This document shows positions 3,862 through 57,012 of a DNA stretch of 64,000 nucleotides, piece by piece. The notes under the pieces were generated by a model. The model worked only from the letters and a program-made list of their open reading frames with translations, was not told the origin of the DNA and ran no database searches. Source of the DNA: Octopus vulgaris (taxonomy: Eukaryota); NCBI GenBank assembly GCA_951406725.2, contig OX597827.1, forward strand, positions 66,278,001-66,342,000, in the 5' to 3' direction. Position 1 is the first letter of the stretch. Every line of letters begins with the position of its first letter. The position numbers and the translations under genes are program-made.

Positions 3862-3866
<5 letters not shown>

Positions 3867-4011
3867 AAAAACATGATGCGAAGGATTCAGCGGTACATAT
3901 GTTTCGGGCCTTTATTAGACAGATTTATAACAATGCATAATATTATAAATCTGTCTAATAAAGGCTCGAAACATATGTACCGCTGAATCCTTCGCATCAT
4001 GTTTTTATTTT
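3862..4011. repeat. Near-perfect hairpin (69-bp arms, 12-nt loop)
   Basis: 3862-3930 vs 3943-4011, one mismatch (G.U on +); contains GAAACATATGTA, a hammerhead 3' half; follows (TA)n. Confidence 0.9.
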
Positions 4012-4925: not shown

Positions 4926-5308
4926 GGAAGCACTCCGTCGGTTACGACGACGAGGGTTCCGGTTGATCCAATCAACGGAACAGCCTGCTCGTGAAATTAA
5001 CGTGTAAGTGGCTGAGCACTCCACAGACACGTGTACCCTTAACGTAGTTCTCGGGGATATTCAGCGTGACGCAGAGTGTGACAAGGCCGGCCCTTTGAAA
5101 TACAGGCACAACAGAAACAGGAAGTAAGAGTGAGAGAAAGCTGTGGTGAAAGAGTACAGCAGGGATCACCACCATCCCCTGCCGGAGCATCGTGGAGCTT
5201 TAGGTGTTTTCGCCCAAAAAACACTCACAACGCCCGGTCTGGGAATCGAAACCGCGATCCTACGACCGCGAGTCCGCTGCCCTAACCACTGGGCCATTGT
5301 GCCTCCAC
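4926..5308 (-). mobile_element. tRNA-derived SINE, family A, full length
   Basis: Head TGGCCCAGTGGTTAGG...GGTTTCGATTCCC (A/B boxes); 11-bp TSD GAATGATTAAT at 4914-4924 and 5309-5319; near-identical copies elsewhere in the window. Confidence 0.88.
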
Positions 5309-5420: not shown

Positions 5421-6290
5421 AGCGGTATTTCGTCTGTCTTTACGTTCTGAGTTCAAATGCCACTGGGGTCGACTTTGCATTTCATCCCTTCGGGGTCGAT
5501 AAGTTAGATACCAGTTACGCACTGGGGTCGATGTAATCGACTTAATTCGCTTGCCTGTCCTTGTTTGTCCCCTCTATGTTTAGCCCCTTGTGGGTAATAA
5601 AGAAACAGGTATTTTGTCTGCCGTTACATTCTGAGTTCAAATGCCGCCGAGGTCGACTTTGCCTTTCATCCTTTTGGGGTCGATTAAATAAGGACCGGTT
5701 ACGCACTGGGGTCGATATAATCGACTGAATCTGTTCGTTAGTACTTGTTTGTCCTCTCTTCCTTTAGACACTTGTGGGTAGTACAGAAATAGAAATAGGT
5801 ATTTCCTCCGTCTTTACATTCTGAGTTCAAATTCCGCCGAGATCGACTTCGCCTTTCATCCTTTCGGGGTCGATAAATTAAGTACCAGTTACGCACTGGG
5901 GTCGATATAATGGACTTAATCGGTCTGTCTGTCCTTGTTTGTCTCCTCTGTGTTTGGCCCCCTTGTGGGTAGTAAAGAAATAAACATTATGTCTGCCGCT
6001 ACGTTCTGAGTTCAAATTCCGCTGAGGTCAACTTTGCCTTTCATCCTTTCGGGGTCAATTAAATAAGTACCAGTTACGCACTGAGGTCTATGCAATCGAC
6101 TCAATCGCTTTGTCTGTCCTTGTTTGTCCCCTCTGTGTCTAGCCCCTTGTAGGTAGTAAATACAAAGGTATTTCGTCTATCCACCGAGGTCGGCTTTGCC
6201 ATTCATCCTTTCCTTGTCGATAAATTAAGTAGCAGTTGCGTACTGAGGTAGATCAGATCGACTGACCCCTCCCTCCAAAAGGAATTCTTT
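5421..6290 (+). repeat. Tandem array of SINE family B units (~185 bp, about 4.5 units)
   Basis: Units start near 5424, 5608, 5798, 5983 and 6167 (GGTATTTCGTCTG...GAGTTCAAATTCC...AGTAAAGAAATA). Confidence 0.88.
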
Positions 6291-7802: not shown

Positions 7803-8185
7803 AAAGCACTCCGTCGGTTACGACGACGAGGGTTCAGGTTGATCCGAATCAACGGAACAGCCTGCTCGTGAAATTAACATGTAAGTGGCTGAGCACTCCA
7901 CAGACACGTGTACCCTTAACGTAGTTCTCGGGGATATTCAGCGTGACACAGAGAGTGACAAGGCCGGCCATTTGAAATACAGGTACAACAGAAACAGGAA
8001 GTAAGAGTGAGAGAAAGTTGTGGCGAAAGAGTACAGCAGGGATCACCACCAGCCCCTGCCGGAGCCTGGTGGAGCTTTAGGTGTTTTCGCTCAATAAACA
8101 CTCACAACGCCCGGTCTGGGAATCGAAACCGTGATCCTACGACCGCGAGTCCGCTGCTATAACCACTGGGCCATTGCGCCTCTAC
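7803..8185 (-). mobile_element. SINE family A
   Basis: Full-length match to 4926-5308. Confidence 0.85.
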
Positions 8186-9580: not shown

Positions 9581-9954
9581 AGGGGGAAGCACTCCGTCGG
9601 TTACGACGACGAGGGTTCCAGTTGATCCGAATCAACGGAACAGCCTGCTCGTGAAATTAACGTGTAAGTGGCTGAGCACTCCACAGACACGTGTACCCTT
9701 AACGTAGTTCTCGGGGGATATTCAGCGTGACACAGAGAGTGACAAGGCCGGCCCTTGAAATACAGGTACAACAGAAACATGAAGTAAGAGTGAGAGAAAG
9801 TTGTGGTGAAAGAGTACAGCAGGGATCACCACCATCCCCTGCCAGAGCATCGTGGAGCTTTTGGTGTTTTCGCTCAATAAACACTCACAACGCCCGGTCT
9901 GGGAATCGAAACCGCGAGTCCGCTGCCCTAACCACTGGGCCATTGCGCCTCCAC
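9581..9954 (-). mobile_element. SINE family A
   Basis: 14-bp TSD TACCATGTTCTCTA at 9567-9580 and 9955-9968; small deletion in the head. Confidence 0.88.
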
Positions 9955-10310
9955 TACCATGTTCTCTATATAGAGAATGTGTCATCTGACAGTTCGGAGC
10001 CGTATGCTCAAAACATTACAAAAGAGAATAAAAAAGCAGAGAACACAAAATCAGGCAATGGTCACGTGTGAGTAGTAGAATGATGGGAAGGAAGATGAGA
10101 GAGATGAAGAGAGAGCAGCAGAGACAGAGAGAGATGGAGGGAGAGAGGAAGTAATGATGTTAGGAAAGGAATATTAGGACGAGAGATAAAGAAAGAAAGA
10201 ATCGCCAAAAGAATCTATTAAAGTCGGAATGCATGGCGTTCAGTTTTTCCATGAATGCATTAAATACTACAAAATATACACGTAGGACACACACAAGGAC
10301 CATAATTATT

Positions 10311-10359
<49 letters not shown>

Positions 10360-10370
10360 ATCTATCTATC

Positions 10371-10448
<78 letters not shown>

Positions 10449-10609
10449 GTTGTATACTGTCAACTTAACGTGACAGTCTCGTATGGGAATTACACCACCG
10501 CTGTTTAGCCCTAGGAAGCATCGAACGCTTCCTGTCGGCTTTTGACACATTTTCTGTGTCCTTATAATTGTGAAGGGGAGGCAAGCACCCCTACCAGCCA
10601 AGATTCACA

Positions 10610-10656
10610 CCTGAGGACATGCATGTTTCTGGGTCTTAATCCGTCATCAGCCCAGG
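10610..10656 (-). ncRNA. Type I hammerhead ribozyme (354-bp family)
   Basis: Minus strand CCTGGG-CTGATGA-CGGATTAAGACCCA-GAAA-CATGCAT-GTC-CTCAGG: 6-bp stem I, canonical core, palindromic stem III ACATGCATGT, GUC triplet; stem II imperfect. Confidence 0.8.
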
Positions 10657-11049
10657 ATACTGAGATCTGCTGACTGAGGTGCCTGTCCAGCCTTCACAAA
10701 TATATATATGTACAGTGAAATTTATTCACTGGTTACCGTAATCAGAAATATTAAATTTCTAAATGTCTCAAAGAGACATGAGTGGTGGTGGAGCGCAGAA
10801 AACGTGTCAAAGCCGACAGGAAGCGTTCGATGCTTCCTAGGGGTAAACAGCGGTGGTTTAATTCCCATACGGGACTGTCACGTTAAGTTGACAGTATACA
10901 AACACTCTCTCGCTCCACCACCACTCCTGTCTCTTTGAGACATTTAGAAATTTAATATTTCTGATTACGGTAACCAGTGAATAAATTTCACTGTACATAT
11001 ATATATTTATGAAGGCTGGACAGGCGCCTCAATCAGCAGATCTCAGTAT

Positions 11050-11096
11050 CCTGGGCTGATGACGGGTTGAGATCCAGAAATATGCATGTCCTCAGG
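11050..11096 (+). ncRNA. Type I hammerhead ribozyme (354-bp family), second copy
   Basis: CCTGGG-CTGATGA-CGGGTTGAGATCCA-GAAA-TATGCAT-GTC-CTCAGG; C>T after GAAA (U-G pair); two-copy consensus stem II is GGGT(TAAG)ACCC. Confidence 0.75.
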
Positions 11097-11384
11097 TGTG
11101 AATCTTGGCTGGTAGGGGTGCTTGCCTCCCCTTCACAAATATAAGGACACAGAAAATGTCTGAAAGCCAACAGGAATCGTTCGATGCTTCCTAGGGCTAA
11201 ACAGCGGTGGTGTAATTCCCATACGGGACTGTCACGTTAAGTTGACAGAATACAACCACTCTCTCGCTCCACTACCATTTGAGACATTTACAAATTTAAT
11301 ATTTCTGATATATATATATATAGTAATTGATTTAAAATTAATTTATATAAACCTAAGTTCGTATCCTATCACTCTAAGGTTTTC

Positions 11385-11590
11385 AAAGCGTAACCACGTG
11401 TGTATCGTTGGCGATTTTCATCCTTCGTCTTCCCTTCCATTGAACGTTCCTCTATTTCCGAAGAAGAGCTTAGCTTGAAACGTAAAACCCTATTTCATTC
11501 CTTTCCTGAGCGTCTAATAATACAATATTTGTACCGCGTCCTCACGTTATTGTCTTTTCTTGTTTGTTCTTCTTTGTTTGGATTCACTAT
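11385..11590 (+). mobile_element. Penelope pLTR-like fragment with degenerate minimal hammerhead
   Basis: TTT-CCGAAGA-AGAGC(TTA)GCTT-GAAA-C-GTA-AAA at ~11455-11487 with ACGT palindrome; ends in (TA)n; a related fragment lies on the minus strand at 28762-28956. Confidence 0.45.
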
Positions 11591-13363: not shown

Positions 13364-13711
13364 TTTAGTCTTTTACTCGTTTCAGTCGTTTGACTGCAGC
13401 CATGCTGGAGCACCGCCTTTTGATCGAGCAAATCGACACCAGGACTCATTCTTTGTAAGCCTAGTACTTATTCTATCGGTCTCTTTTGCCGAACCGCTAA
13501 GTTACGGAGACGTAAACACACCAGCATCGGTTGTCAAGCGATGTTGGGGGGGGGGCAAACACAGGCACACAAACACACACATATATACATACATATATAC
13601 GACGGGCTTCTTTCACTTTCCATCTACCAAATCCACTCACAAGGCTTTAGTCGGCCCGAGACACTTGCTCAAGGTGACATGCAGTGGGACTGAGCCCGGA
13701 ACCGTGTGGTT
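13364..13711 (-). mobile_element. SINE family C, head truncated by the family B array
   Basis: Matches the other family C copies. Confidence 0.8.
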
Positions 13712-14140
13712 TGTCTGTTCTTGTTTGTCCCCTCTGTGTTTAGCACCTTATAGGTAGTAAAGAAATAGAAATAGGTATTTCGTCTGCCCGTACGTTGTGA
13801 GTTCAAATTCCGCCGAGGTCGACATTGCTTTCTTCCTTTCGGGGTCAATAAATTAAGTACCAGTTATGCACTGGAGTCGATATAATCGACTTAATCCGTT
13901 TGTCTGTCCTTGTTCGTCCCCTCTTTGTTTATTCCCTCGTGTGTAGTAAAGAAATAGGTATTTCGTTTGCCGTTACGTTGTGAATTCAAATTCTGTCGAG
14001 GTCGACTTTGCCTTTCATCCTTTCGGGGTCGATAAATTAAGTACCAGTTACGCACTAAAGTCGATGAAATCGACTTAATCCGTTTGTTTGTCCTTGTTTG
14101 TCCACTCTATGTTTAGCCCCACGTGGGCAGTAAAGAAATA
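13711..14140 (+). repeat. SINE family B tandem array (~2.3 units)
   Basis: Unit starts at 13774 and 13957. Confidence 0.85.
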
Positions 14141-14576: not shown

Positions 14577-14580
<4 letters not shown>

Positions 14581-14619
14581 CTGAAACAAGTAAAGAGATA
14601 TATCAATGTATATATATCA

Positions 14620-14655
<36 letters not shown>

Positions 14656-14699
14656 TGATATATATACATTGATATATCTCTTTTACTTGTTTCAGTCAT
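14577..14699. repeat. Palindrome centred on (TA)n that duplicates a SINE 3' end
   Basis: ATGACTGAAACAAGTAAAGAGATATATCAATG...(TA)n...CATTGATATATCTCTTTTACTTGTTTCAGTCAT; one 1-nt indel. Confidence 0.85.
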
Positions 14700-15866: not shown

Positions 15867-16141
15867 ATAAAAATTTAGCAATTAAGGACAACTACTTAAT
15901 AAGGAAAACTTAACAAGAAATTGTCAGGTAGATAGCGTGAAAACCTCATAAGAGAAAAAATTTCGAAAATAATTATTTCTTATTGAACATATTAATTTAT
16001 ATATAGAGGGCATTATACATACATGCCAGAGGGCATTATACATACATGCCACACGCTAAGAGGGACAATTAGTCATTTCTACCAAAAATATTACTAATCC
16101 CACCGAATGCAATTTTTCAAAGTAAGACATTTAAAAAATAT

Positions 16142-16189
16142 AGACCTGTATCACAGTGATTTCATACTTACGTATTCATCAGCAGGCCT
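16142..16189 (-). ncRNA. Type I hammerhead ribozyme, inverted copy (475-bp family)
   Basis: Exact reverse complement of 16637-16684. Confidence 0.88.
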
Positions 16190-16636
16190 GGATGTATCAT
16201 ACATAAACGACCCTGCCTCGCTTAAGCCGATCAGCTAACTGATCAACATCAACGAAGTAATATTTTTGGTAGAAATGACTAATTGTCCCTCTTATCGTGT
16301 GGCATGTATGTATAATGCCCTCTGGCATGTATGTATAATGCCCTCTATATATAACTTAATATGTTCAATAAGAAATAATTATTTTCGAAATTTTTCTCTT
16401 ATGAGGTTTTCACGCTATCTACCTGACAATTTCTTGTTAAGTTTTCCTTATTAAGTAGTTGTCCTTAATTGCTAAATTTTTATTCCGAAAAAACTTCTCC
16501 TTTCCCGAAATGCAATTCGTAAAAGTCTGCCATTTACCGGATGTAATATATGTAAACTCACCCATGTGCTTCGTTGATGTTGATCAGTTAGCTGATCGGC
16601 TTAAGCGAGGCAGGGTCGTTTATGTATGATACATCC

Positions 16637-16684
16637 AGGCCTGCTGATGAATACGTAAGTATGAAATCACTGTGATACAGGTCT
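16637..16684 (+). ncRNA. Type I hammerhead ribozyme, intact core (475-bp family)
   Basis: AGGCCTG-CTGATGA-ATAC(GTAA)GTAT-GAAA-TCAC(T)GTGA-TA-CAGGTCT: 7-bp stem I, canonical CUGAUGA/GAAA core, 4-bp stem II with GNRA loop, quasi-palindromic stem III (ATCACTGTGAT), AUA cleavage triplet (cut after 16677). Confidence 0.88.
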
Positions 16685-16847
16685 ATATTTTTTAAATGTC
16701 TTACTTTGAAAAATTGCATTCGGTGGGATTAGTAATATTTTTGGTAGAAATGACTAATTGTCCCTCTTAGCGTGCGGCATGTATGTATAATGCCCTCTGG
16801 CATGTATGTATAATGCCCTCTATATATAAATTTATATATACACACAC

Positions 16848-18939: not shown

Positions 18940-19513
18940 GGCGGTAAACTGGTCAACACGCCGGGCGAAATGCTTAGCGGTATTTCGTCTACTGCTACGT
19001 ACTGAGTTCAACTTCCGCCGAGGTCGACTTTGCCTTTCATCCTTTCGGAGTCGATAAATTAAGTATCAGTTACGCACTGGGGTCGATATAATCGACTTAA
19101 TCCGTTTGTCTGTTCTTGTTTGTCCTCTCTGTCTTTAGCCCCTTGTGGATAGTAAAGAAATAGGTATTTCTTCTGCCGCTACGTTCTGAGTTCAAATTCC
19201 GCCGAGGTCTACTTTGCCTTTCATTCTTCGGGGTCGATTAAATAACTACCAGTTACCCACTGGGGTCGATATATTCGACTGAATCCGTTTGTCTGTCCTT
19301 GTTTGTCCTCTCTGTGTTTAGCCCTTTGTGGGTAGTAAAGAAATAGGCATTTCGTTTGTCTTTACGTTCTGAGTTCAAATTCCGCAGAGGTCGACTTTGC
19401 ATTTCATCCTTTCGGCGTCGATAAATTAAGCACCAGTTGTGTGCTGGAATCGATCTATTCGACTAGCCTCCTCCCTCAAAATTTCGGGCGTTGTGCCTTA
19501 AGTTGAAAAGAAT
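18940..19513 (+). repeat. SINE family B: head, 3 units, terminal tail
   Basis: Head GGCGGTAAACTGG...; units at 18979, 19163, 19345; ends CCTCCCTCAAAATTTCGGGCGTTGTGCC. Confidence 0.85.
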
Positions 19514-20603
19514 ATTTAGATATGTGTTGCATATTTCGTCTTTTTTTTTTGTTCCTCACTTGTCGCATAATTTACGAGGAATCATGCAAATATCAATCAT
19601 TATAAGTTATAAAACTTTCATTCGAGATTTGGAACATATGCACTTATTAAAAATACATTTACTGAGGCGATATACATGTTTATTATTCATGTATGATTCA
19701 TATTTTAACATAATAAAACTAAGTCGTTCTTTAGTTGCATTAATTATTGGAAATAATCTGCTGAAAAGCAATACGACAACTGAAAAACTGCGAATGAGGA
19801 ATACAATTCTGCAGAATTTTAAGTATTAGTTACGTCTTTGATTCATAATATATTCATATATATTTCTTATATATTTCTGGTTTATATAGTTATGTTATAT
19901 AGTTACGTAAGAAAAATTACAGATTTACTAAGTCGAAACTGAATGCAAGAATGGATAATAACACAAATGTTCGTAAATATTTCTCTCATGCGCACCAGAG
20001 AAGCATTTTCGAGAGGAACATTTTTTATTCATTTAAATCTAAAACATTACCACGGTGGCACATTATTTCTTGAGTCTGTCAACAAACCATAATGGCTACC
20101 ATTAATTTAACAAACATTGGTTTTCGAATTTCGGCACAAAACCAGCAATATGGGGTGAAAGATAAATCAGCCGGTAATTATCAAGTGACAATTACCTTAT
20201 CAAACCCGGAAATTTAAATCAAGACGAAAATTGAAGTCAAGACTTAAGACGGACGTAATGCCACTAAGCATTTTTTTCCGGCGTACTGTCGTTTCTTTCA
20301 GCTGGCAGCCTTAATTATGTAACAAATATGGGACCATCTAATTGTGAAAGAAGGAAAAAGATTTCTAACATTACTTTTCGGTATCTTCATAATTGTTTCA
20401 ATTATTTGCCGCAGGGCCAGCAACTACGCGTGACGCATTAAGTCGATTACATTGACCCTAGTGCTCAACTATACTTGGTTTATACCCCACGAAAGGATGA
20501 AAGGAAAGGTTGAACGCCGTGGAGTTTGAACTCAAACCCTAAAGTCAGGTAAATCACAGCTGAGCATTCTGTACGGCATGCTAAAGATTCCACCAGCTCA
20601 CCA

Positions 20604-20836
20604 ATTTCTTTACTACCCACAAGGGGCTAAACACAGAGGGGACAAACAAGGACGGACAAACGGATTAAGTCGATTATATCGACCGCAGTGCGTAACTGGT
20701 ACTTATTTAATCGACCCCGAAAGGATGAGAGGCTAAGACGACCTCAGCGGAATTTGAGCTCAGAATGTAGTGGCAGACGAAATACTGCTAAGCATTTCAC
20801 CCGGCGTGCTAACGATTCTGCCAGCTCGCCGCCTTA
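20604..20836 (-). mobile_element. SINE family B monomer
   Basis: Reverse complement of head plus unit; older decayed copies adjacent at 20120-20600. Confidence 0.82.
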
Positions 20837-21774
20837 CGAAATTTCTAATATTTATTGCTGCTTTCGCGTTCGTTATCAAACGTGCTGGGTTCAAATCCGA
20901 TAGCTTTTAATTATCCAAGCAACAAATTCTAGGCTTTTCATTCTGGATGGTATCATGTACGATGATGCGTGTGATTATTTTAATAGCTAATATCACCTCC
21001 GTAAAGACATTTGAATCGTGTCATATCATTGAGATAGGGATAAATGCAATACAGGATATCAAACACTGACCTTCTGCTGAATCTCATTTCTTCAGTAACC
21101 AAATTTGTCATGGCTCATAATTTCCTTAAAATGCAGGGCAGTGTGTTACACATGTGGTAAGCCGTTTGTGAAATGCGCCGTATAGCAAGTACCATACTAA
21201 CGTTGTATTCATTCAGTCTGAAATAGGTGAGGAAGTCTGCAAATTAAGGAGGAAGAAAAATTTGTTTTTTTGAATTCCTCAAATTTTCCCTCTCGTTCTG
21301 CAGCAACATTTTTAAAGAATGGATATTTTGATTACAAGAATGATAAGGATTTAAATCAATGATACGTACGTTTGATATCAAAGAGTAGAAAGCCAAGTTG
21401 TTGCTGTTGGGTTAAAGTATATCTCTATATTAGCACTGTATGAGCGAACCGATAAAAGGAAAGCATATATGTAGAAGTAATTTATCCGGTCCTACGTCAA
21501 CGAATGGATTTCAAACATTTGAACATATGAAACAAGAATCGATTTACTATAACTTTTTTGCAGGTTTGAACATTTCACAGGACGATTTTAGCCTGCTGGT
21601 AGAGTACGCTGTGCATCTGATGCAAAAACAGGTAACAGTGATGTCGTTATAGAGGAAAGCATACATTTAAGGGATTGAGGTAGAAATCTTTTAAAACGGC
21701 TGCAGTTTAAGAAAAAGTTATGCAATTTTTCTTATGCATGCATGTATGCATATATCATACTATATATATATATA

Positions 21775-21991
21775 AGGCGGCGAGCTGGCAGAAACGTTAG
21801 CGCGCCGGGCGAAATGCTTAGCAGTATTTAGTCTGCTGTTACGTTCTGAGTTCAAATTCCGCCTTTCATCCTTTCGGGGTCGATAAATTAAGTACCAGTT
21901 AAGCACTGGGGTCGATATAATCGACTTACTCCGTTTGTCTGTCCTTGTTTGTCCCCTCTGTGTTTAGCCCCTTGTGGGTAGTAAAGAAATA
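21775..21991 (+). mobile_element. SINE family B monomer
   Basis: GGCGGCGAGCTGGCAGAAACGTTAGCG head; small internal deletion. Confidence 0.82.
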
Positions 21992-22053
21992 TATATATAG
22001 ACATATACATGTGCGTGTGTGTGCATGTCTATATATGTATATACATATGTATA

Positions 22054-39002: not shown

Positions 39003-39270
39003 AAGTTAAGCAGTTGTGGTGGATGAAAAAGATAGCAGTAGTACCAATAATTGTCGGAGCTTTGGGAACAGTGTGAAGAAAAAAAACTTGAGAAGTACGT
39101 GGGACAAATTGGTGCTGCATTAAGGGTGGAGCACTTGCAGAAAACAGCACTGCTTGGAACAGCTCGAATATTCCGGATGGTGCTCGAAAAATAAGAGGTG
39201 TTACGTTAGTTCATTGGTAGTGAACAGCTGAAACTACACAAACATCACCAGCGTTAGAAGCTGTGCAATG
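39003..39270 (+). mobile_element. R4/Dong 3' end (subfamily 2)
   Basis: VKQLW...VVPIIVGALGTV...LQKTALLGTARI, then 3' UTR and (AAT)n. Confidence 0.75.
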
Positions 39271-39272
39271 CC

Positions 39273-39311
<39 letters not shown>

Positions 39312-39312
<1 letters not shown>

Positions 39313-39667
39313 TTAATACCGGCAGATGACAACGTGTCTCTAAAAGAAATGGAGAAACTTTCAAAATACAAAGACCTGGAAATAGAGGTAACCAGAATGT
39401 GGAATCTAAAAACAGAAACAATTCCTATCATAGTAGGTGCATTAGGCATGATAAAAAAAAATTCAGACAAATACATAACAAAAACACCAGGACTTACAAA
39501 CACATATAACATACAGAAAATTGCACTACTAGGCACTGCACACATCCTACGCAGAACACTTTCCATACAATAATGATCAGAGCATCACAACGAATCACAG
39601 CACATACCCAAGGCACACAGAGCTGCGCTCGGTAGTGAAGAGAAAGCACGCTATAAAAATAAAACTA

Positions 39668-47934: not shown

Positions 47935-48514
47935 ACTAGGGTGAGTCAAAAAGTAATACCATTTTGTTTCGGTCAGGTATAATTACCAACACAGAAACAT
48001 GTATCGTACATGAAAATGAAGCTGGTTCTCTGTTGATCACATCCCTACTTCTCAACATAGTCAACTTTTCTCTCAATAGCAATGTTCAACCTTCGAATGA
48101 GAGCATGTATCCCTGCGTCGTAAAATCCTGTTGACTGTTCTTTGAGCCACTTCTTCACTACAGTTTTCACTTACTCGTCAGACTATCATGTCTTCGGCCT
48201 CATGAAAGATGCTTTGAGAGGCAAACATTATTCCAGTGACGGCGATGTGAATATCTAATGAAGAAGTGACTCAAAGAACAGTCAACAGGATTTTACGACG
48301 CAGAAGTGACTCAAAGAACAATTTTTACGGGGTAGGGATACATGCTGTCATTCGAAGGTGGAACATTGCTATTGAGAGAAGCGGTGACTATGTTGAGTAG
48401 TAGGGATGTGACCCACAGAGGGTCAGCTTCGTTGTGATGTATGATAAATGTTCCTTGGCTGGTAGTTATACCTGTGCTAAACAAAATGGCAATACCTTCG
48501 GACTCATCCTCGTA
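47935..48514. mobile_element. Mariner-derived fold-back made of two inverted 3' ends
   Basis: ~240-bp inverted arms; right arm encodes SDYHVFGLMKDALRGKHYSSD...GIHAVIRRWNIAIERSGDYVE; ends GACTCATCCTCG-TA. Confidence 0.8.
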
Positions 48515-51047: not shown

Positions 51048-51111
<64 letters not shown>

Positions 51112-51114
51112 ATA

Positions 51115-51334
51115 TATCATCATCATCATCATCGTTTAACGTCCGCTTTCCATGCTAGCATGGGTTGGACGGTTCAACTGGGGTCTGAGAAGCCCGAAGG
51201 CTGCACCAGGCCAGTCAGATCTAGAAACACTGCCTGATCTGACTGGCCTGGCGCAGCCTTGGGGCTTCCCAGACCCTAGTTGAACCGTCCAACCCATGCT
51301 AGCATGGAAAGCGGACGTTAAACGATGATGATGA

Positions 51335-51340
<6 letters not shown>
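51115..51340. repeat. Fold-back of a retroposon 3' end ((GAT)n tail), ~105-bp arms, 14-nt loop
   Basis: 51115-51221 vs 51236-51340 with a few mismatches; each arm ends ...GCGGACGTTAAACGATGATGATG; (TA)n on both sides. Confidence 0.85.
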
Positions 51341-51404
<64 letters not shown>

Positions 51405-53240: not shown

Positions 53241-53523
53241 AAAAGGGATTCATGACTGAAATGAAAATGAAATTATGCATTAAAATTTAACATATTTGTC
53301 AATATAAGTGTTGTGACCTAGCAGAATCGTTAGCACGCAGGAGTAATTACTTAGCGGCATTTAGTCCCTTATTTCTGAGTTTAAATTCCATCGAGGTCGA
53401 CTTTGCCTTACGTCATTTCGGGGTCGTTTAAAGGAATCACTCAAGTCCAAGTATTCAGATTTCCCCTTACTAGATATCGCTGGCTTTATGCCAAAATTTG
53501 AAACCAATATATCTGCCAATATA

Positions 53524-53757
53524 AGGACGGCGAAGTGGCAGAGTGGATAGCGCGCCGGGCGAAATGCCTAGCATTATTTCGTCTGTGTTTACGTTCTGAG
53601 TTCAAATTCCGCCGAGGTCGACTGTGCTTTTCATCCTTTCGGGGTCGATAAATTAAGTACCAGTTACGCACTGGGGTCGATGTAATCGACTTAATACCTT
53701 TGTCTGTCCTTGTTTGTCCTCTCTATGTTTAGCCCCTTGTGGGCAATAAAGAAATAA
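53524..53757 (+). mobile_element. SINE family B monomer
   Basis: Head plus one unit; decayed fragments flank it at 53318-53430 and 53770-53880. Confidence 0.82.
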
Positions 53758-54631
53758 GTATAAATCGCACGCCAGGGGAAAGGCTTAGCGGCATTTCATG
53801 TCAACGGTCTGAGTTCAAATTCTACCGAAATTGACTTTACCTTCTTTTCTATGTCGGCTGAGCACTTGGATCGATGTAAAAGTAATTTACAAAAAGATAT
53901 ACTCAAAAGCAATGAGAGGAATATGAACTAAATCACAAACGACAATTACAAATCTATAAAACATTCATAAACTCCATAATTATAAAGTATTTAAATAAAA
54001 GAAAACAATTTGCTGACTCTGATATATTTGGGGGAAATGCATGGCATCACCTATCAGGGGTCACAGGTAATTCTATAAATTATAATAAATGACATTCTTC
54101 TTTAGTGTAACATAGACTTTACTAAATTTGTTTGTACCACATGGAAATTCTGTGGATAAGGATACTACTCTTTCAACTGATGTAGAGATTGAAGAGATAA
54201 AACTGTTTTCTCACATGTTATTAATGATAGGTATCATATTTGAGTTGTCTTAATTTTGTAGCGATGTATTATCATTTTCTTTTTTTATAAAAAGAAAAAA
54301 TTATCAGCAACACGATCATTACTATCGACATTATTGTTCAAGCTATAATAATCATCAGGATATTCATCATCCTTATCCCCTCCCCCACTACCACCACCAC
54401 CACCACCACCACCATCAACACCACCACCATCATCATCATCAACACGATATTGTTATCCGTATTTACGTTATGCTGTTTTACAATTATCATTAAAATACCT
54501 ATTATTATTGTCAATATTAGAGATACGAAATGTATTTGAACTTCTATATTGCAACGGAAGAAATAAACATATACAACTATCTATACATATATAGCCGCAT
54601 ATATAAACATATATACATAAAATCCGTCCAA

Positions 54632-56404: not shown

Positions 56405-56628
56405 CAAATATATAAACAGGCTACAACGATTGCAGCTCAGAATATCGCTCATTTATTCTTTGAGAATCATTTTATGAAGGTTAAAATTGGTTCCAAGCAG
56501 AATTAGTAAATAAGTATGTTTCAGGCACACAGACATTTTTCCTTTGCCAGAGTGAAAGAAATATATAACATAACCAGCAAAATATATGGATTGAGTTTAT
56601 TTTATTTAATAATCATATCTATGTACAC

Positions 56629-57012
56629 GTGGATGCGCAATGGCCCAGTGGTTAGGGCAGCGGACTCGCGGTCGTAGGATCGCGGTTTCGATTCCCAGAC
56701 CGGGTGTTGTGAGTGTTTATTGAGCGATAACACCTAAAAAGCCCCACGAGGCTCCGGCAGGGATGGTTGCGATCCCTGCTGTACTCTTTCACCACAACTT
56801 TCTCTCACTCTTATTTCCTGTTTCTGTTGTACCTGTATTTCAAAGGGCCGGCCTTGTCACTCTCTGTGTCACGCTGAATATCCCCGAGAACTACGTTAAG
56901 GGTACACGTGTATGTGGAGTGCTCAGTCACTTACACGTTAATTTCACGAGCAGGCTGTTCCGTTGATCGGATCAACTGGAACCCTCGTCGTCGTAACCGA
57001 CGGAGTGCTTCC
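56629..57012 (+). mobile_element. SINE family A
   Basis: Full-length plus-strand copy; imperfect TSD TATCTAT(G/T)TACAC. Confidence 0.85.

Follow-up and report, generated by a model that had tools for sequence, protein, structure and literature searches.

Positions 10441 to 11309 of the window (the whole 64,000-nt stretch of DNA from Octopus vulgaris that was analysed, AT-rich and microsatellite-laden animal DNA) hold a repeat with a period of 354 in which an inverted arm on the minus strand is joined head-to-head, that is 5'-to-5', to a direct arm on the plus strand. The parts of the locus, in order, are these:

10315..10407, no strand: (TA)n microsatellite of the left flank, the likely insertion target
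10407..10445, no strand: (AG)19.5 run adjoining the left outer end
10441..10795, minus strand: inverted arm, 1.00 unit; its outer end is the family's 'short' end (~10908-10911 in unit coordinates)
10610..10656, minus strand: hammerhead motif (type I) within the inverted arm, with its GUC at 10618-10616; an A-C mismatch interrupts helix II
10795..10796, no strand: head-to-head junction
10796..11309, plus strand: direct arm, a partial tandem of the 354-bp unit (1.48 units); 44% GC; without coding match
11002..11143, plus strand: long imperfect hairpin around the hammerhead; arms ~11002-11037 and ~11108-11143
11050..11096, plus strand: hammerhead motif (type I) within the direct arm, with its GUC at 11088-11090
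11266..11309, plus strand: one-sided 'tail'
11309..11322, no strand: short (TA)n run of the right flank

The preliminary description of this locus, one inverted unit (10441-10795) followed by about 1.45 direct units (10796-11309), agrees with both the alignment and the period of 354. The reverse complement of 10410-10800 matches the direct arm in 354 of 385 columns, microsatellite end columns counted, and the inverted arm, read from 10795 to 10441, corresponds to unit positions 10911 to 11265. Because the arms differ by 16 substitutions, we rejected an assembly artefact. The direct arm amounts to 1.45 units by length and to 1.48 units when a 10-nt deletion in its last copy is counted. In unit coordinates the outer end 11309 is equivalent to 10965, the family's 'long' end (~10962-10965), and the outer end 10441 to 10911; the tail between them, which terminates at the long end, measures 44 nt at the locus and about 54 nt in the unit (10911-10965), and its fold has two short hairpins. 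The short end is AC-rich and preceded by a hairpin. Clear microhomology is absent from the junction 10795/10796. The (TA)n context that had been described is present on both flanks, which are AT-rich or (TA)n and within which a target duplication is not discernible, but on the left the (AG)19.5 run, likely grown by slippage out of the element's terminal CTCT, stands between (TA)n and the element. The unit, 354 bp with 44.4% GC, has the size of a retrozyme, as had been pointed out. None of the five ORFs over the element has a Pfam match at the curated cut-off, and the 64,000-nt window holds no further copy of the 354-bp family.

Several other repeats surround the locus. A SINE-like family of 380 bp, whose copies are 92-95% alike, occurs at 4928-5308, 7804-8185, 9585-9954 and 56628-57012, with one copy 490 bp left of the locus. 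Tandem arrays with a unit of ~185-190 bp, in which the hammerhead core was not found, lie at 5424-6279, 13709-14140 and 18975-19464, and single or inverted copies of that unit at 20600-20836, 21770-21997 and 53519-53762. At 47935-48513 there is an old 580-bp element with long inverted arms (72%), which we take to be mariner/MITE-like. On the plus strand at 39232-39573, an ORF of 113 aa, presumably the C-terminal endonuclease end of a LINE, matches through its last 85 aa (39316-39570) clusters of mollusc 'hypothetical protein' (commonest phylum Mollusca, scores 0.95-0.98) and has no Pfam match.

Both arms carry the hammerhead core CUGANGA...GAAA...UH closed by a 6-bp helix I, with a GUC site, at 10610-10656 (minus strand) and 11050-11096 (plus strand); these are the places given in the preliminary description, and the motifs are far beyond chance. 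A loose hammerhead descriptor finds four motifs in the window, two each for this family and for a 475-bp family, and a stricter one (helix II of at least 3 bp) keeps three of the four, the inverted arm being lost; the stricter descriptor was matched in 1 of 200 shuffled windows and in 0 of 20,000 shuffled units. Rfam returned no match in the window at gathering scores, and at E up to 10 the 13 matches within 10300-11500 were all microsatellite-driven, with no hammerhead among them. In the direct arm, helix II has 4 bp (one a wobble) above a C-A mismatch, and a helix III of 3 bp carries a palindromic loop. The palindromic stem III claimed earlier is exact in the inverted arm only (ACATGCATGT), whereas the direct arm reads ATATGCATGT. 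Helix II is pairable over 4 bp in the direct arm and in the letters of the family (see below), but is broken in the inverted arm.

The hammerheads of both arms are damaged here, and the minimum-energy fold of either arm is not the hammerhead fold. The motif sits at the tip of the long hairpin. The predicted circular fold of the unit is stable (z of -4.7 and -5.6, 64-65% of nucleotides paired, 0 of 100 shuffles equally stable), part of this stability coming from the long hairpin. The locus has one hammerhead per strand and not the two consecutive units by which Li et al. recognise an 'active' element, and therefore it cannot release a unit-length circle. It would now be inert, and any transcript reading through it would form a 350-bp duplex by folding back on itself.

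The other hammerhead family of the window lies at 15867-16837, with a unit of 475 bp. No similarity between the two families outside the catalytic core had been noticed before, and our local alignments agree: their scores of 23 and 25 were reached by 60/300 and 32/300 shuffles. The 475-bp copy has an inverted arm of 0.82 unit and a direct arm of 1.23 units that are 99% alike, which makes it the younger one, a 2-nt microhomology at its junction, and a hammerhead with an AUA site and a 4-bp helix II. An internal TATATA tract terminates its direct arm, and its inverted arm reaches 121 nt further, the reverse of the 354-bp copy. The two architectures, described earlier as the same, thus resemble each other in kind without being identical. 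Fold-backs beside (TA)n also occur in the window without a hammerhead. One of 346 bp (51055-51400), 90% self-complementary and with (TA)n on both sides, lacks the hammerhead core; its arms end outward in (ATG)n, and it looks like two retroelement 3' ends joined head-to-head. Another, of 150 bp (3862-4011, 95%), abuts (TA)n at its left end while its right arm continues into other sequence, and resembles a very short insertion of Penelope-like element (PLE) type with a one-sided tail. At 14577-14699, beside a common repeat, lies a 98% palindrome that has (TA)n both in the centre and at the left edge. The geometry is therefore not tied to the ribozyme, and its sharing by two families points to no new mechanism, the structure being one already described for PLEs.

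Part of the 354-bp unit is present in 20 of 24 listed public sequencing runs (10 studies, four organisms). We aligned four runs to one unit (10796-11149) at a likeness of 82%, which placed 2051, 1840, 264 and 947 contigs. The summed depth of contigs does not amount to a copy number. None of the runs is recorded as RNA, and X7, which we only guessed to be RNA, has a depth profile like that of the DNA runs and speaks neither for nor against expression. Loose contig ends recur at 10962 (20 contigs in X1 and 9 in X10) and at 10908 (20 in X2 and 16 in X10). These four, among 24 rows listed (307 further), are long and pass into AT-rich DNA with an agreement of 0.49-0.55, as would be the mark of an element end followed by differing flanks; the remaining listed rows, mostly short and in better agreement, resemble the unit's own sequence, and we ascribe them to subfamily differences. 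In all four runs, summed depth drops by a factor of 5-8 between the 10952 and 10964 bins and about 3-fold between the 10892 and 10904 bins, subfamily differences lying at the latter place as well. Judging from these contigs, the recurring ends at 10908 and 10962, ~54 nt apart, are the two outer ends of our locus.

Since the outer ends recur at two places, they are fixed and not circularly permuted, contrary to the preliminary description; variation is confined to the inner 5' ends, as 5' truncation ordinarily produces. Opposite-strand joints elsewhere in the unit, at 10827/10868 (X1, X7) and 10912/11100 (X2), one contig each, with shorter sides of only 21-40 nt and no direction given, indicate that the inner junctions differ between copies. 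Contigs that cross the tandem junction have short sides of 30, 30, 17 and 12 nt, all below the required 31, and among the pieces listed from the four runs, none of which spans a unit, there is no copy with two tandem hammerheads. Go-back joints from 11149 to 10796-10828 were rejected as signs of circles, being only the continuity of the unit across our chosen cut. Pattern scans of DNA gave no match in viral contigs or in prokaryote genome contigs, and the single metagenome match (a 20-mer in a sediment contig, L001 1356-1375, with a bacterial-looking ORF and without a hammerhead) was set aside as chance.

The recurrence of both ends bears on how the copies arise. Priming of the outer ends by arbitrary microhomology was dropped for this reason. 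Rolling reverse transcription of a 354-nt circle from arbitrary entry points, which would yield circularly permuted copies, would account for a direct arm longer than one unit with an intact cleavage site, for an inverted arm of exactly one unit and for the good predicted circular fold; the recurrence of the outer ends largely refutes it, and a PLE studied in vitro mainly uses unprocessed RNA as its template, with hammerhead cleavage dispensable (PMC11167929), so that we find this reading very improbable. A circle entered at fixed sites is a possible part of the best explanation given below. The same ends speak to two other origins that long terminal inverted arms and TA flanks might suggest, a DNA transposon of MITE or fold-back type with a TA target and a SINE inserted by LINE-type twin priming. 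Here the two termini are unlike, one having the tail and the other not, which already contradicts such an origin; in addition, the inner junction is not the same from copy to copy, and the unit is in tandem. Twin priming inverts the upstream part of an element without duplicating its 3' end, whereas at this locus a 3' end stands on both arms. We give these options a negligible chance. The preliminary description had counted fixed ends with a DNA-transposon-type target duplication as a sign of a MITE, an argument that is inapplicable to ends that are fixed but unlike each other.

The contigs also give the hammerhead of the family. In the table of other letters (40 rows listed and 4 further), the family shares A at 11069 and C at both 11073 and 11081 with the inverted arm, shares G at 11066 with the direct arm, and differs from either arm in its C at 11046. 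The stem positions 11046, 11066, 11073 and 11081, each mispaired or wobbled in an arm, are Watson-Crick in the family. In the family hammerhead, helix I has 6 bp and is extended above by further pairing, helix II consists of 4 Watson-Crick pairs capped by a loop of 4 nt, and a palindromic loop closes the 3 bp of helix III. Compensatory changes in helices I and II were not seen in the four runs, the family state being paired but invariant. The C-A mismatch at the base of helix II (10.1-11.1) is found in both arms, and 11063 and 11076 are without change among the rows listed; it is a trait of the family, because the counts of change types leave no room for a C>T or A>G row in X10. A U-U at the same place has been reported for a cleaving axolotl motif (PMC7229834; 10.64898/2026.07.22.740005).

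Two letters common to both arms are almost never seen in the family, and for this reason we infer a single insertion from the RNA of one donor: G at 11046, a position at which C makes up 100% of the depth of each of the four runs (43 contigs), and C at 10996, where the family has A at 93-100%. Over the 115 columns where three copies of the unit can be compared, the copies have 4, 4 and 2 changes of their own, with one column three-way, a star-like pattern. Later conversion between the arms could yield the same pattern of shared letters. The two private letters are also what host repair would leave, had the inverted arm been made as a fold-back copy of the direct arm, mending a break at the (TA)n flank after a simple insertion, and the hammerhead-less fold-backs beside (TA)n at 51055-51400, 3862-4011 and 14577-14699 fit such an origin as well. 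However, the outer end of the inverted arm is the recurring short end of the family (10908), which repair would have no reason to choose, and the three copies are about equally diverged, as one event predicts; we regard repair as quite unlikely. The distance between the arms is 0.047, and that per copy 0.023-0.033. With the calibration of 0.09 for 25 million years quoted in PMC13282606, and provided that this Octopus calibration applies, the insertion would be roughly 6-9 million years old.

The explanation that we hold with considerable confidence is that a 354-bp hammerhead repeat, non-coding and present in many copies, left a copy here that has since decayed. The repeat is likely a non-autonomous PLE of the non-LTR retrozyme type, and this copy was likely put into (TA)n by a borrowed PLE reverse transcriptase-endonuclease. 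PLE insertions consist of partial tandems, often with an inverted 5'-truncated copy, carry a 30-40-bp tail at one end and are biased towards microsatellites (Craig et al., 2021, PMC8557442), and a like structure has been described with head-to-head order (Arkhipova et al., 2013, PMC3846280). The locus bears these marks: a partial tandem (1.48 units), an adjacent inverted 5'-truncated head-to-head copy, a one-sided tail, which at ~54 nt is longer than the 30-40 bp described, and a (TA)n target. Integration of PLE type, which the preliminary description had proposed from the sequence, is thus borne out by the structure that these two papers describe. In vitro, a PLE protein has been shown to nick AT-rich DNA on both strands and to extend each of them, and reverse transcription starts at two internal sites in an AC-rich stem-loop, the tail being the gap between them; hammerhead cleavage is unneeded for this activity (Frangieh et al., 2024, PMC11167929). 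In Octopus vulgaris, PLE families (31 of them) are reported to have been recently active (PMC13282606), and the Naiads of cephalopods prefer (TA)n and are described as long inactive (PMC8557442).

By analogy, a PLE protein would have nicked both strands of the AT-rich target, and cDNA would have been primed from each side at two fixed internal start sites on the RNA, the short start site giving the left arm and the long one the right arm, with the gap between them as the tail. The two 5'-truncated cDNAs, both from one donor's RNA, would then have been joined head-to-head. Since both arms pass through an unbroken GUC site and the direct arm is longer than one unit, an uncut tandem transcript or a re-ligated circle, and not a cleaved linear monomer, would have served as template; the data fit both transcript and circle. 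As the unit is non-coding, the PLE protein would act in trans. For an autonomous partner within the window, reverse transcriptase or GIY-YIG domains were found in none of the 150 ORFs scanned of 239 low-repeat ORFs of at least 55 aa (the 89 left out of the Pfam scan lie mostly in SINE-like repeats or overlap others); the scan gave four weak matches, all under the cut-offs and none to a reverse transcriptase or endonuclease. An exact 10-mer of the unit, in either orientation, is likewise absent from a file of Naiad, Chlamys and Hydra consensus sequences that includes the Naiad_Obim and Naiad_Ovul DNA, which is a weak test.

The coverage of the unit is uneven. Over 10820-10963 the summed depth exceeds that over the hammerhead by a factor of 26-111, and between 11120-11143 and the hammerhead it falls 6-22-fold. 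Three causes of this 3' excess can be considered: copies heavily truncated at the 5' end, a halt close to where the ribozyme would cut (11090/11091), or a larger subfamily whose upstream sequence is different. At least part of the last is favoured by the contigs that run beyond 10965 with other letters. Most of the contigs that extend beyond the long end bear different letters over unit positions 10966-10987 (10967, 10968, 10972, 10974), pointing to a larger sister subfamily or to a partner element with another continuation.

The same excess could arise if the 354-bp 'unit' were a pseudo-LTR remnant: an autonomous PLE would have left truncated ends, piled up a single time as 5'-truncated copies, that were never mobile by themselves. 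By the depth over 10820-10963, most relatives share only the 3' 200 nt, and this, the many contigs that run past 10965 with other letters (rows 10967-10984) and the heavy truncation typical of PLE copies (PMC8557442) are in keeping with such a remnant. Yet the junction 10965/10966 is found in both arms, the hammerhead part is covered in all four runs and in at least three organisms (A, B and D), the helices have canonical lengths that are typical of retrozymes and unlike the minimal PLE motif (PMC4209133), and Pfam found no coding remnant in the element. On balance we judge a pseudo-LTR remnant unlikely and keep to a mobile non-coding repeat that uses a PLE protein. The boldest reading of the depth goes further: most copies would be hammerhead-less cDNAs of a self-cleaved linear RNA that ends just 3' of the GUC cut, and rare copies like this locus would be one-lap cDNAs of the re-ligated 354-nt circle, the reverse transcriptase halting at its own start site. 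Bearing on it are the 1.00 unit of the inverted arm and the inversion joint of another copy, which lies at 10912/11100. We consider this reading doubtful.

The 354-bp locus is well explained by known PLE and retrozyme biology, and it enlarges a known class by what is probably a cephalopod member. Its value lies in the PLE insertion marks (inverted arm, tail and two fixed ends) on a unit of retrozyme size. Animal retrozymes have been linked to PLEs and argued to derive from PLE pseudo-LTRs (Li, Clavereau and Pollet, 2026, 10.64898/2026.07.22.740005); that link, argued so far from co-occurrence and sequence similarity, here receives support from the structure of an insertion. If copy ends turn out to mark the ribozyme cut, and copies made in one lap of a circle prove real, genomes would provide evidence for an effect of hammerhead cleavage and circular RNA on PLE-driven retrozyme insertion in vivo. 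The locus would then matter more, since cleavage was dispensable in vitro (PMC11167929). The high copy number of the family makes this reading testable by computation alone.

Among the literature matches listed, drawn from a collection with few subscription papers and without Repbase/Dfam, there is no description of the 354-bp family or of a cephalopod retrozyme, and supplements may list one. The nearest relatives in kind are the metazoan non-LTR retrozymes, such as a 350-390-bp mussel repeat and axolotl Rtz_353 (Cervera and de la Peña, 2020, PMC7229834; 10.64898/2026.07.22.740005), with which the family has in common a non-coding unit within 150-450 bp, a GC content below 50%, a self-paired predicted circular fold, and a type I hammerhead with a 6-bp helix I, a 4-bp helix II and a short helix III with a palindromic loop. 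The mismatch at the base of helix II recalls axolotl HHR_Amex2, and the family hammerhead has the canonical metazoan type I build set out in PMC4209133. Unlike the 'active' retrozymes of Li et al., the locus is a copy of monomer type with one hammerhead per strand, known from sequence alone, and its inverted arm and tail are without counterpart in the descriptions of retrozymes that we consulted in PMC7229834 and 10.64898/2026.07.22.740005. Matching insertions can rather be seen in EN+ PLEs (PMC3846280, PMC8557442, PMC11167929), which have a pseudo-LTR, a head-to-head inverted 5'-truncated copy, a one-sided tail, a (TA)n target, a hammerhead upstream of the reverse transcription start sites and an AC-rich short end; the locus departs from them in having no RT/GIY-YIG ORF, a tail of ~54 instead of 30-40 nt and a hammerhead of canonical type instead of the minimal one. 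It is unlike MITE/TIR transposons, having no matching inverted termini with a fixed target duplication. The non-autonomous Chlamys PLEs (MRC1, Chlamydomonas; PMC8557442) are likewise non-coding, with pseudo-LTRs and head-to-tail copies, and are presumed to be mobilised in trans, although they resemble autonomous partners at the 3' end and most Chlamys elements are without canonical hammerheads. The locus is best called a monomer-type offspring that works like a non-autonomous PLE.
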